Shown here: in pieces, positions 28,719 to 34,987 of the stretch | Layout of the letters: every line of letters begins with the position of its first letter | How positions within the stretch are numbered: position 1 is the first letter of the stretch | From: Glycera tridactyla | Lineage: Eukaryota | Assembly (NCBI GenBank): GCA_965644265.1 | Contig: OZ286463.1 | Coordinates: forward strand, 60,388,001 to 60,452,000 | Length of the DNA: 64,000 nt | Direction of reading: 5' to 3' | Position numbers and translations under genes: made by a program | Notes under the pieces: model-generated | Told to the model about the DNA's origin: nothing | What the model saw: the letters and a program-made list of their open reading frames with translations, nothing else | Databases searched by the model: none

Positions 28719-31700
28719 TGTAATCCTTCGATCTGAGTGCCAAAATGGTTGCTTGTAAAATATTGTTATAAAGACCCTGATAGATTCCCTGGTCTCAAGG
28801 AACTGTGTTGAAATCCTTACGTTTGTCCAATACTTTTGCCTGGCTAGGAACTCAAGCAAACAAGTGACCTCAGAGGTAAGAAATAGCAAGTATAAACTAG
28901 GCCCTAGGAATTTCCTCAGTCCCTTTTGTCAAGGACTGTGCTACTCTTACTGATTAACAAAAACGTTGTCTAGGGTAGACAACAAAAAAGCGTGATTGTG
29001 AATAATCTTTCCTCAGGCAACCAACTGTAATTCAAAATTCATCTTGTGAAGAGCATGTTTGATTCAGAGACTTGCATTGAAACACGGAACAAATAAGCAA
29101 CAGATATTGATTTAGATTCATTTATTGTAGTATAATACCTCACCTCGCTCCATCACCCTTCTCTTCTTGGTATCGAATAAGAAAATGGAAGTTCAAGCTA
29201 GACGGATCTCCAGGTTACTTCAGAAAAGAAGTAATTGCATCATCATTCAATCTCAAGCTCACAGATACTCGCACATTCACCCAAATACCTGTTCACAACA
29301 CACTTGCTGCTCCACATACACTAAAACGGATCCAAGGGAGAAGTGCACATGGTTAGTGTGTGTAACGGGCCAGAAGAATGAGTGATGTATGAGGATGAAA
29401 TGGAAGATCAAAAGATCCCAACTTATCTACTCAAGTTCAAACCAACCCAAGCAGTGTAGATCCTCTGAAATTATTGGCTCCGAAACGATACGCTAACAAG
29501 ACAGAGAAAACATTTCGGGTCTATGATAACACAGAACCGAACACGTCATCTCATCTCAGCGAATACCGAATCTAAGCAATTCCCAAGACTACACGAGCGG
29601 ACGGTGCGATTTAGAGATGATTTACACTACAATAACTTCGTGGGACCAAGTTCGACTTCGAAACAATCAAGTTCTAACTCCGGGATCAAGCAAGAACTTA
29701 AGTCGAAGTGATGCTGGTCACAGAAAAGCGATAATCTTCATAGCGATGAGCTAGTGAGTGAAAGAAAACACCGGGAGGCGTTAAATGTCAACTGTGAATG
29801 CACCTACAAGTCACGCTCCGGCTGAAGGAAGCTAAGCGCTGTAGCACACACAACACACATATCGCTGATTCGCTCAAGCATACGGCAGGCCGCTAAAGCT
29901 GAAAAGAGTTCATCAGGTAATCAAACACTTTGAAGAAGAATTTGAAAGTCTATGAAGACGAATGACGCTTCAAGACTAAAGAATTCAATTCAAAAACTTC
30001 AAAAGTCTAAATTGAAATTCGAAATCCAAAGAAGTGTTCAAAGAATAGTGTTCACAGTGTAACACGCTGCAAATTGACTTAAGAGTTCATACTGTAAGAA
30101 ATATTCCCAAGAGAAGCTTGGAGACTATCAACCAGGACAAGGGTAGTCATACTCTGTCGGGGACAGTGTCACTCAAATGGGTTCACTACAGTGAACAAAG
30201 TCAACCGGTTTTCACCACTGGATTGTTCATCGGTGAATCTTAAGATGTGGCAAGGTGAAACACATTACCAGTTACCATGCAGTGCTGGTCGACTGCAATG
30301 CACCAAGCTGCATACCGATTCAGAAGATGTCGTAACGTCACGAGATGTCGTCACACGATGTCGTATACAACACACTCACACTGACATCAGTTATCGCTCG
30401 AGCTGAACGAAGGTCATCGGAGATCAGTCCATACCAACTATACCGAGCATATCAGCTAAGTCGGGTGACGACGATCGCTCTACTCTACAGGCGACTTCGA
30501 ACTGCACGAAGGATGTCTCCGGATGATGTCATCGAAGATGTCACCGAAGGCAAAACACCTCGTAGCAAGGGAAGGAACCGAAGTATTCTCCCCAAGAAGA
30601 TACTTCCAAAGAAGATACTTCCAAAGAAGAGACTTCCAAAGAAGATACTTCCGGAGAAGAGGGACTCCCGAAGAAGATCGCCCCGAAGGCCACTCCACGA
30701 CTTCTAGCACTGGAAACGTTCGGCTGACGACCAGTAAGCCATGGCATGCATGCTGCCGCTACAGGAAAAGAAGAAACCCAATTTCCCTCAGCATTCATGT
30801 GTGGTATGAAAACTAAGTCAAAGTTTTATGTTATATCGTTTAATTTGCAATTTTTTTGGTATTTTATATGGTTCCTAATTCATTCGAAGAGACTATAGTT
30901 AAGAGAATTGAACATTCCATGTTAAGGCAATGCTCCATGTATCCACTAACTAAATGGCAGACAATGGATTCTATGTTGTTGATACTAACTCCCTCAATCA
31001 GTTAAGACTAACCAGAGTTAAGATAGTTAAGCTCAAAGAATATTTGTTGAGCCGAGACTACTTTTAATCAAGTGATCACCTGCAATACTAATGCCATCAA
31101 CAATCATTCTAACAAGAAAGCACTAAGCTGATTTGCATGAACTTTGTTTTGATTCAAGTCAGCATTAGTAGAGCAATAGCCCGAATCAGGATCCGAAAAC
31201 AGACAATGTTCAACTACGCATCCAGTTGGCATGACTGTGGACTGATTCTGCTATTTTTATTTGTTGAAATTATTCTAAGTGATTTCACAAAGAAATTGCT
31301 TGCAAAATCAAGAAATTTCAATTTCTCAATTAATTGAGTGCCATTTCAAAGAAAATTACTCACTATCAATTGCAAGAATTAAATAAATTCCATTGAGAAG
31401 TAGCAAGTGTCATGATGTTCTAAGAGGGCTATCAATTGTAAACAAGTCAAGACTCTCACCTGGCCATACATGGAGGTCCACTGAAGACCACCCACAATGG
31501 CAAGCAACACAGTGAATTCCGAATGGAATTCTACAAGTTCACTACCTATGCCTGTGTGGCAAAAATTTTCTATCTGTTCTTGTTATTCCATAGCCAAATA
31601 CTTCTTGACACAAGAAAAGAAGACAAGGAGGCTATTTGACTGAAATTGACAAGCTAAATTGGCTAAGATGACTAAAAAGCACTACGAGAGCTACAAAGTG

Positions 31701-34700
31701 TCTTCACGAAATGGAATGGGTGTAATATGTGACATGTAATTGTTGTAGATATACTGTGAGGGTTTCTGAAGGTCAAAAGTCGAAATTTGAGCGAATCTAA
31801 TTGAAAACAAGAAATTTCAAGATGGCCGCCAAATATAACATGGCTGCTGCAGACCAACTCCAAGGGAATACAAAGCTGGTATTCTCACACACACTATTTG
31901 AATCACCAGGCTTTCATTTGGAACGATTTCGAATCGATCTGACCTAAACTCAGAGATTTCAAGATGGCGTCCAAAATGGCCGACCAAAATACCAAAATCG
32001 TTCTCCTGAGCTTAATATTGAAGCTAGGAAGTTGAGAAACTCACCACAGCTAGATATGAATATCTGTGACTATTTGAGCACATGAAATCAGAGATATCTT
32101 GAAAATTGACGAAAATATATTGAACACAGGTGAACAGAGTCAATAGCTAGCGAAATCCGTCACACCTCGAGTTTTCAAGGTAGAGACTTCATATTCCACA
32201 TCATCACACATGACAGTTGGGCCAACAAATTTTATCGCATGAATTATAGATACAGTGAATTTATCTATAAACGGCGGATAGTTCAAAAAGGTTACATTTT
32301 GGTTGGAAATTGGTTGGGGGGCGAAATATTTCACAAACATGAAATCTGAAGCGCCAAATCAACTGGGGATTTCATAAATACTGCAACATTTGTTTTAAAC
32401 ATGGCTGATTGGTGAAATATGAGATTGGTTCAACCAATTTTGGTTATCCGTGATTGGTTTAGGTTGGTTGGTCTCAAATCTGGACAGATGTATCAGACAA
32501 AGCCAGAATTGCCAGAATTCGGTCTAAACACCTTAGAAATCAACCGTAAGTGTGAAAAATCATGGAAAATCACGAATGGTCACAATTTCGAGGTTGGTCC
32601 TTCTATAAGGGTCTAAGTTCGAAAAGTAGGTCACGTGCTATGGGAACATTTTAGGGCACAGTATATGAACAACCGTGTATGGAATGTTCTATAAACGTGT
32701 TCTACGCGGGTTCTAGAGTGATTCTAGGTGGTCTTGATCCCACGGACCAAACACAAACAAACCTATATTTACTTTCTTGTCCTGAGAATTCTCGGAACAA
32801 CATTTCATAGAGATGCGATATATCTACATAGATAATGGTCTCAAACCACTCAAAACGTGTCATATCCCTCTCAAATAGATATTGTATCACAGACGTGTAG
32901 GCAAGAAGTTTTCATGACAGCGTGCAACAACAGGAAATGTGATTTTCAGAATTCTTTCGTCTATATACTCAAAATTGTCTCCACGATGACGGGATTTCAC
33001 AAAGACAACGTTTGGCTATCAAAAGTCACGAAATACTGTGCAATAACAACGTTTTGTGTGAGAAACGTCCAAAAACAATGTTTTGATAAGATTTGGCTGA
33101 GAAACAGTGAAGCGCCTTTTAAAGACAAAAACGGTCAGTGAATCTAAACCAGGGCGTGGGAACAATTAACCCAACAAGGCCACACACCGCGCGTCTTTCG
33201 ATCAGATCCGGCGTCTCGCAGTCATGTCAATTTCTGTCTGGAAACCTAGACAACCGTCTGACTTTGAAAGAATACTCTATATTGAGATCAGTTTGTTCAC
33301 TTTAAAAGAAGCATTCAGGCATGCAGGACGCTTTTGGAGCGTTCTACATTCAACATTCATGGACTTAACAGCCCCATTCTTCTCAATGCAAATCACGGAT
33401 ATTAGAAATACCGGATAGCACGTTTATGAGACAGAATGGATATCTTACTCTCTCTTTTTACCGAAATTATGAGTTACAGACCACGTATATCGCGAAAATA
33501 GACTATTTCGGACACTATTCGCTTATCTCTCAATAACAGACATTTCAAACACAATTGTCGGATGAATTACGACCTGTGAATGTGGCAATGGAGTCCACGT
33601 TCACCGTGCCTTCATCCTTTCACCGGAAAACATCACAAACCGCGGTCACATGGATGGCTTTCACTCTCACAACCCCCACACACGAATAGTCACGAAATAT
33701 CAACCGCGAGGACATCTTGGCACACAAAACGTATCACGAGGCACAGTAACAATACAAGAACAGTTCCACGGCACATTTCATGAGTCACACTGTCATAGAA
33801 GAGATTTCAGAGAAAGACATGTGTTTCACAGTGGTGAATGCATGGTGGCACATGGGTGGTGGGGTGTTCGTGTACCTATGCTCCTACATTATGCTGCTAA
33901 CAATTTGTGATGCACCTCACAATTACTGACCTGTCAAAGATGTTTAACTCATGTGGTGGATCATGATGGTGGCTTCCCGTGGAGCACTTTAGGAGTAGCG
34001 ATATCCTAAGGCATCAAGGAGGGTATCTGCAAACTTTCTTGCAAGACTTCTGATCCAGTGACAGCGACCTCCGGGGCGAATGTGTCGAAAGTAATCTTCA
34101 CATTGCAAGTAGCCCAGATATAGGTGCTGACACCGATCTCTCCTAAGATACCAATGATATCACCAACCACCAATCATGTGTCCGGATTTTATTTACGGTA
34201 AACAATTACGTTAGATACGGGCGAAGGTGTCTTGTGCTCTTTTTAGCAGAGTCTATTTCATCGAGACGGTGACGCTATTTGCAGGAGGGTAGCAAAATTA
34301 CAATAGCAGCAGTGAAGGACTCCCCTATCGGTTTACAAAATGGACTCTTCCACTTTTCACTCGAGCAGCGGTGGTTCTCCACGTGCACGAGATCTCGACG
34401 TGCACGAGAACTGCAAGACTCGCTACACACCTGTTGCGAGACAAAAGCACCTGTTTGCCTTTGAAGATCTGTTAGATCTTCCTTTGATCTTCAGCCTGCT
34501 ATAACTTTGAAAGTTTTAGGCGCAGTCCAGTCATACTTTCCGACAGAACGTAGTTTATGTTTCCATATAATACTGCAATTCTCTCCGAAAATCTGGAATC
34601 CTAAAATACACATTAATTTAAATCATCCAAATCGGAGTTAATTACACAGGCAGAGAATTTTAGCTCCCTCTTTTCTGACAAACTCGAATCAGAGCTGCAG

Positions 34701-34987
34701 TCAGAGCAGGAGTTGTATCTACCTCTCTGTTCAGTCATAAGATTGAAATTATCACTGAAAAGAACATGACGGGCTATATTGAGCCGTCATTGGGAAATTT
34801 ACTGCCGAAACAACGATTTGTTAGATTTAATTTCCTCTTCCCATGTAATCCTAGAACTAGGCCTATAGCCATAAAAGGACAGTATTAGACACTCGATTGT
34901 AGGACGAGAAGTCACTGTTCCAGGGCTAGACCATAATAATTCCATATTACATATCAGATAACATCACGACCTTTTCGTGGTGTTACA
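28719..34987 (-). mobile_element. 6269-bp nested insertion, probably a giant solo LTR (Gypsy-like), likely minus orientation
   Basis: Ends are TGTAA...TTACA, with a 4-bp TSD GACG at 28715-28718 and 34988-34991. Removing it restores the RT frame (ATG ATA GAC GAA CAA). No long ORF, no terminal direct repeat and no TIR beyond 5 bp. AATAAA on the minus strand at 29121-29126. Confidence 0.75.

Follow-up and report, generated by a model that had tools for sequence, protein, structure and literature searches.

The window analyzed here, a stretch of 64,000 nucleotides from Glycera tridactyla (NCBI GenBank assembly GCA_965644265.1, contig OZ286463.1, positions 60,388,001 to 60,452,000 of the forward strand), contains a DIRS-type element whose reverse transcriptase (RT) frame is split by an insert of 6,269 bp. 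We report that this insert is, with near certainty, a solo long terminal repeat (LTR) of a Ty3/Gypsy family, and that this young family, together with its relatives, likely hosts a group I-type intron that, judged from sequence comparison, would be self-splicing and spread by way of RNA.

The insert and its DIRS host

The insert begins with TG and ends with CA, reading from TGTAATCC to GTGTTACA between two copies of GACG, and its minus strand begins TGTAACAC. It has a GC content of 41% and zero N, its longest stop-to-stop frame is 123 amino acids (aa), and BLAST of the insert against itself found no terminal direct repeat and no long terminal inverted repeat (TIR), only a 5-bp TGTAA/TTACA inversion. 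Read separately, its flanks are the two halves of a single RT frame. The original prediction, drawn from the letters of the window, had described a 6.27-kb TG…CA insertion without an open reading frame (ORF), carrying a 4-bp GACG target-site duplication (TSD) inside a DIRS RT and lacking direct terminal repeats, TIRs and coding capacity; the coordinates, flanks and frames agree with this description, as do the self-comparison and the frame length (at most 123 aa). The host was classified from its sequence as a DIRS-type (DIRS1-like) element because it has inverted terminal repeats (24396-24574 and 38078-38256), an internal complementary region, Pfam matches for RT and RNase H, and a tyrosine-recombinase-like HEVRA motif, the recombinase being recognized by this motif alone and by no Pfam match. 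The features of the locus are as follows.

24396..24574, plus strand: DIRS host, inverted terminal repeat, left copy (94%)
28400..28718, plus strand: DIRS host, 5′ portion of the RT frame, severed by the insertion
28715..28718, plus strand: TSD GACG, left copy
28719..34987, minus strand: LTR, with near certainty solo, of a Ty3/Gypsy family with LTRs of about 6.0-6.3 kb; 97.5-98% full-length match to both LTRs of paired elements
29121..29126, minus strand: AATAAA, likely poly(A) signal, present in 17 of 18 copies; U5 would be about 390 bp
30594..30678, no strand: 15-bp tandem repeat within the LTR; the length of this region differs among copies
34988..34991, plus strand: TSD GACG, right copy
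34992..37739, plus strand: DIRS host, remainder of the RT, RNase H and tyrosine-recombinase-like frames, with additional stops and one frameshift
37919..38256, plus strand: DIRS host, inverted terminal repeat, right copy, together with the internal complementary region

An Rfam search of the LTR returned just a chance bantam match (E 0.77). An antisense ORF within the LTR, of 123 aa here and 170-187 aa in six older copies, was rejected as a gene since it bore no sign of coding; it had 39 synonymous and 137 non-synonymous pairwise changes over 270 nt, counted from pairs that are not independent.

The LTR retrotransposon family

When both 500-bp ends of the insert were used as probes against the genome, 40 of 40 scored matches were at least 99% identical, many of them in direct pairs 11-14 kb apart. 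Six paired elements were fetched as separate stretches (L-numbers denote such individually fetched stretches, and G000:C1 and C35 are contigs of the genome); as they were chosen as top matches, this set is biased toward young elements. The window insert matched their LTRs almost from end to end, at about 97-98%, barring small indels, one 0.88-kb insert and the limits of the fetched stretches. The paired LTRs were 99.6-99.9% alike in five elements, and a 4-bp TSD was found in all five with both ends read. The giant solo LTR that had been predicted is thus borne out by a repeat conserved at full length on both sides of gag-pol, with a primer-binding site (PBS) and 4-bp TSDs, and probing the genome with both ends, which had been suggested as a check, yielded these paired copies.

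Counts across the genome gave a similar picture. The 18-base LTR start has 2,093 exact matches, and 737 of them are joined exactly to the internal 3′ end, hence at least 737 internal junctions; from these two counts the family is estimated to cover roughly 1% of the genome. Among the first 100 LTR starts on C1, 29 had no partner within 9-30 kb, and the 20 of these that were fetched comprised 12 complete solo LTRs with a 4-bp TSD (one mismatched), one 5′ LTR and seven copies interrupted within 8 kb. Neighbor spacings on C1 were 12.5-12.9 kb in 22 of 37 cases and 13.4-13.5 kb, one intron longer, in five. Because its TSD is perfect, the window copy is most likely the remnant of a full element of about 19 kb that integrated in the DIRS RT and then recombined between its two LTRs. 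On C1, elements that share LTRs form tandem arrays with three consecutive internal junctions each (G000:C1:2218112-2268824 and 57354881-57405613). In L016-L017 an older LTR of this family contains a nested solo LTR of the same family (roughly 90-96% alike) with a CCTG duplication; the element there also carries an antisense insertion with an 866-aa ORF in pol (L018). In four insertions (L071, L219/L220, L231/L232 and L215/L216) a C takes the place of the duplicated base next to the 3′ end of the LTR; this C matches the CA spacer before the PBS and possibly reflects incomplete flap removal at integration.

The great length of the LTR could in principle be due to accumulated nested transposons, or the insert could be a TIR-bounded or other DNA element, and we regard either as very improbable. 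Single copies do hold later insertions of 0.2-5.6 kb, the intron has entered both LTRs of one element, so that LTRs can grow by capture, and an ancient capture of sequence into the LTR may have occurred. Against this, complete uninterrupted copies are 6,019-6,304 bp long and can be aligned from one terminus to the other, so that the full length is kept, as the proposed alignment of copies was meant to establish, and the pairing of full-length LTRs around gag-pol already largely refutes the nested and TIR readings. The interior at 31.8-33.5 kb, where nested repeats had been suspected of inflating the size, is present in 10 of 10 aligned copies and has an LTR-like copy number: with 500 bp of it as a probe, 2,404 candidates were obtained, compared with 1,888 and 1,576 for the LTR ends, and its top matches again fall in 12.7-kb pairs. 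A sister family, with a pol about 60-85% identical depending on the region and the same PBS, has LTRs of 5.16-5.17 kb in six of seven measured and 4.69 kb in one, and no likeness between the LTRs of the two families was found past their ends by blastn or six-frame tblastn. Since the sister family also has long LTRs that are unrelated in sequence, great LTR length looks like a trait of the clade.

The orientation of the gag-pol elements agrees with the earlier proposal that the minus strand is the sense strand. The internal region measures 6,461 bp in an element of about 19 kb, so the unusually large parent that had been expected exists, albeit large solely through its LTRs. The gag frame is 418 or 475 aa with a PNMA match (six elements), and pol is 1,527 aa, uninterrupted in three of six elements, with RT (423-580), RNase H (665-795) and integrase (929-1095) in Gypsy order and a protease seen as an N-terminal DTG motif only. 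The PBS lies 2 nt past the 5′ LTR and is a 19-nt complement of the 3′ end of the genome's tRNA-Pro plus CCA. The purine tract that was expected before the 3′ LTR was not found, either in this family (737 exact junction matches, C-rich) or in the sister family, and this lack raises a question of priming; the Gypsy assignment is based on the LTRs and the domain order, not on canonical plus-strand priming. The junction AAACATTT…CCCCG is common to L008:7787-7811 and the sister family (L220:923-948). At GGAAAAC (L008:2978-2999), a likely frameshift site, there is a -1 frame overlap between gag and pol, and two distinct gag N-termini occur with the same LTR and pol (L005 and L014 versus L002, L008, L011 and L017), which suggests recombinant subfamilies. 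From C35:249 onward there is a long tandem array of tRNA-Pro-matching motifs, which accounts for most of the first 100 of 793 matches.

AATAAA, predicted about 400 bp from the minus-strand 3′ end, lies 408 bp from it here (window 29121-29126) and 407-419 bp from it in 17 of 18 other copies, in the region of the LTR that is most divergent (85-88% to older copies). Its conservation favors a short U5. The proposed U3-R-U5 layout is suggested by this conserved signal; three runs guessed to be RNA (assembled contigs, which may hold DNA) span the whole LTR and show no transcript start or end.

Among known elements, the plant Ty3/Gypsy element Ogre likewise has multi-kilobase LTRs, given as 1.9-6.5 kb (PMC6431247), so that the 6.0-6.3 kb found here is at the top of the Ogre range, in an animal host. 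The planarian Burro/GYPSM1 elements, described as exceeding 30 kb, are giant via a 25-kb internal region (PMC6431247). In contrast to both, the family described here has a minimal internal region of 6.46 kb with no extra ORF or env, its LTRs make up two thirds of the element, and it has a 4-bp TSD and a tRNA-Pro PBS and no purine tract. A PNMA-type gag and a pol in the order protease, RT, RNase H and integrase are shared with PNMA-gag Gypsy elements of fish and marine invertebrates; named protein matches, at about 34-44% identity, are to fish, frog, sea urchin, sea cucumber and abalone records, and the closest proteins, 62-74% identical, are unnamed. A survey of molluscs limited LTRs to 80-1500 bp (PMC6238403), and LTR finders limited to 1.5 kb would miss families with 6.3-kb LTRs.

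Elsewhere in the window, long inverted copies of another repeat lie on both sides of the DIRS element (986-2660, 23657-24463 and 38291-38685), and tandem arrays of 22-bp, 103-bp and 340-bp/AGTC-type units occupy 49126-49826, 55541-58049 and 58369-63972.

Group I-type introns in the family and its relatives

An ORF-less insert of about 800-880 nt is present in this Gypsy family and in its relatives. In one element both LTRs contain the same insert of about 875 nt, with a single mismatch between the two copies, and two pol genes carry related inserts. No ORF longer than 66 aa was found in it, and its fold is 7.5 standard deviations better than 20 shuffles. A 22-mer from its core occurs 1,725 times in the genome and a 17-mer 2,852 times. 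We read 72 of at least 2,852 core matches: the best genome-wide matches plus the two pol inserts (29 of 29 copies within this family, sense strand), 20 C1 loci away from the listed LTR starts of the family (22 of 22 copies in LTR retroelements, sense) and 20 further loci matched by the 17-mer only (21 of 21, likewise). All 72 copies read were inside LTR retroelements on the sense strand, one host being recognized as a retroelement by an env-like ORF alone. The hosts also include an element with a baculovirus-F-like env ORF and one with a protease directly before the integrase (L244, L255).

In this family 33 intron copies were mapped, comprising 14 clean sites, one site of ambiguous register and four chimeras. 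The empty sites of intron-less copies join without duplication or loss, and all 14 clean sites lack a TSD. As the empty sites fixed the boundaries, readings of the intron as a Helitron, a spliceosomal GT-AG intron or a miniature inverted-repeat transposable element were dropped. The chimeric introns (L011, L038, L046 and L089) have the 5′ flank of one site and the 3′ flank of a downstream site, with the host sequence between them deleted, and are likely products of recombination between two intron copies in one element. Four target sites are recognizable in the window LTR, all of them empty.

29278..29279, minus strand: intron target site at LTR position 5709, empty here; filled in both LTRs of a different element
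33283..33284, minus strand: intron target site at LTR position 1704, empty here; filled in L053 and L054
33459..33460, minus strand: intron target site at LTR position 1528, empty here; filled in L035
34808..34809, minus strand: intron target site at LTR position 179, empty here; filled in L081

The flanks of seven intron copies at one pol site were 1-5/1-4 differences apart, compared with 6-8/4-7 from intact intron-less copies; being closer to each other, they indicate that the intron-bearing RNA itself retrotransposed. Two of the seven have identical introns and differing flanks, hinting at exchange or repeated homing. In assembled contigs a skip of 876 nt was present in all four runs and is accounted for by intron-less copies, and no circle joint of the intron was found in a contig-level comparison of the four runs.

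A pattern search based on P7 retrieved at least 120 metagenome loci and three viral contigs. The order P3, AAA, P4, P5, P6, CUA, P7, GGU, P3′, P8, a 7-nt J8/7 and P7′ was found in 95 of the 120 metagenome loci listed; the other 25 are without the full core in the available sequence and were left out of the covariation analysis, in which P4 comprised 6 bp. Covariation set against shuffles stood out for P3 (0 of 5,000) and P5 (1 of 5,000). The joiners measure 3/3/3/7 nt, lengths that are canonical in the Tetrahymena model. Viral loci (L096 and L235-L237) have the core sequence, the guide position and the 3′ end in common with this intron family. These viral relatives split three genes of large DNA viruses (two capsid, one Rpb2), whose frames, given the predicted intron ends with guide and terminal G, continue in register, which argues that introns of this family would be spliced in vivo. 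Metagenome relatives adjoin integrase, PNMA gag, RT/RNase H or zf-RVT frames (L120, L125, L134, L136, L141 and L152), and a Pfam match was obtained for 9 of 56 ORFs in the metagenome flanks; the intron habit would thus extend to the retroelements of other organisms. One locus, L103, was rejected as a chance match to the pattern.

A guide segment of 6-8 nt, situated about 26-35 nt inside the 5′ end of the intron, base-pairs with the end of the upstream flank, and its sequence varies with the site. Across 49 copies with 35 distinct flank/guide pairs, 5.71 of 6 positions were paired, compared with 4.08 ± 0.12 in shuffles given the same freedom of register (0 of 10,000). Pairing was complete (6 of 6) in 22 of 23 non-chimeric copies at pol sites, and the guide was mismatched at two of four LTR sites, both of which carry the guide of one pol site. 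These numbers are small, and the pattern would fit insertion at near matches followed by selection for splicing in coding sequence. At their 3′ ends all 33 mapped copies of the family match an end pattern that itself requires the terminal G; the boundaries of the non-chimeric introns were set by empty sites, and the viral relatives likewise end in G.

Proposed movement of the intron

From these observations we consider it probable that the insert is a mobile, self-splicing intron that takes a route through RNA. Somewhat more cautiously, we propose that bilaterian nuclear genomes harbor a protein-free group I ribozyme turned high-copy transposon, one that would reverse-splice into the RNA of LTR retrotransposons, be written into DNA by the RT of the host element and retune its 6-nt guide at each site without needing U·G, in a family common to the introns of giant viruses and to other retroelements in metagenomes. 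The RNA route is suggested by the sense-only placement in elements copied through RNA, the lack of a protein and the duplication of the intron into both LTRs. In this scheme the excised intron would reverse-splice into retrotransposon RNA upon a guide match of 4-6 nt, and the RT and integrase of the element would turn the intron-bearing RNA into DNA, an LTR-borne intron ending up in both LTRs. The guide would then drift to a full match wherever the readability of pol requires splicing, and unspliced RNA would still be packaged, allowing intron-bearing elements to spread.

A number of results weigh against this account. Rfam covariance models gave no group I match on intron-bearing loci, viral relatives included, and since none was recognized the intron is filed, on its sequence, as a group I-type variant and not as a member of an Rfam family. 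P4, P6 and P8 are complementary yet too invariant to beat shuffles, P7 was set by the search pattern, and the interval of 500 nt between P1 and P3 is unusually large. By the textbook rule for group I introns the 5′ splice site is a U·G pair, from which the intron here departs, the 14 clean sites having U·G in eight, C-G in four and A-U in two. The P10 pairing with the 3′ exon is weak, with 0-3 of 4 pairs and no control. The sample is small: the first 29 copies came from the top of a search with a single copy, and out of at least 2,852 copies 72 were examined. As for the LTR and its family, the window copy has four empty target sites and no intron, the full parent element was not observed at this locus, and the missing purine tract leaves plus-strand priming unexplained.

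It is conceivable, if unlikely, that the insert of about 875 nt has a group I fold and moves at the DNA level by means of a protein acting in trans, with IStron/HUH-like guide pairing or a homing nuclease, or that it is a dead ribozyme copied passively. Guide-target pairing without a TSD is also typical of IS200/605-type movement, which the pattern here resembles; splice sites other than U·G exist, and intron copies at the same site spread along with the host element. Such movement is nevertheless difficult to reconcile with an intron that has no ORF, that is confined to retroelements in strict sense orientation (72 of 72), that occupies at least 14 sites in one family with a matching guide at each, that keeps a near-invariant catalytic core across distant hosts and whose relatives interrupt viral capsid and polymerase genes in frame. 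A similarly low probability attaches to a variant of the guide-drift step only, in which the guide would be rewritten from the new flank in one step, through a template switch within the P1 hairpin while the RNA is reverse-transcribed, instead of by mutation and selection. Guides that differ at up to six positions between introns 96-98% alike, and Watson-Crick pairs that often stand in place of U·G, speak for it. Against it, mismatched guides remain at non-coding LTR sites, U·G is kept at 8 of 14 sites where templated copying would yield U-A, and the guides form stepwise series (GTGAAG, GTGAAT, GTGAAC, GTGTAA).

The guide in P1, the P3-P7-P8 core and the terminal G are features shared with group I introns as these are generally described, as would be the putative P4-P6 domain. 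Reverse splicing by pairing of 4-6 nt is a known proposed route of group I intron spread, mostly inferred so far, and accounts of these introns in nuclei limit them to rRNA genes and record hardly any in animals (PMC10964413). The intron described here differs in its protostome host, in its abundance in LTR retroelements (at least 2,852 copies), in its many targets and lack of an endonuclease, and in its relaxed U·G and lack of an Rfam match. The genome itself places the host among the protostomes, as it has many Wnt genes and two bantam loci above the cut-off; a search for haemocyanin gave no match and was uninformative. The introns reported from large DNA viruses and Polinton-like viruses occupy single fixed sites in DNA-virus genes (PMC12220804), whereas here there would be mass retargeting in RNA-copied elements; the likeness of the core was established with loci L096 and L235-L237. 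Retrozymes and IStrons are likewise ribozyme-bearing parasites that use a borrowed transposition machine, but retrozymes carry hammerheads and have their own termini, and IStrons are bacterial, encode TnpA/TnpB and move at the DNA level (PMC7761336, PMC13521648). Within the literature covered (titles and the starts of abstracts, with subscription journals, Repbase and supplements outside the scope), no group I intron is reported in animal LTR retrotransposons.

Group I-type introns in the LTR elements of an animal chromosome are not expected. If the proposed route is true, giant non-coding LTRs would be landing space for the intron. The intron copies point to a splicing ribozyme that would be reprogrammable by nature and follow relaxed splice-site rules, and the presence of thousands of recent copies at many sites, with readable guides, makes the reverse-splicing route directly testable.

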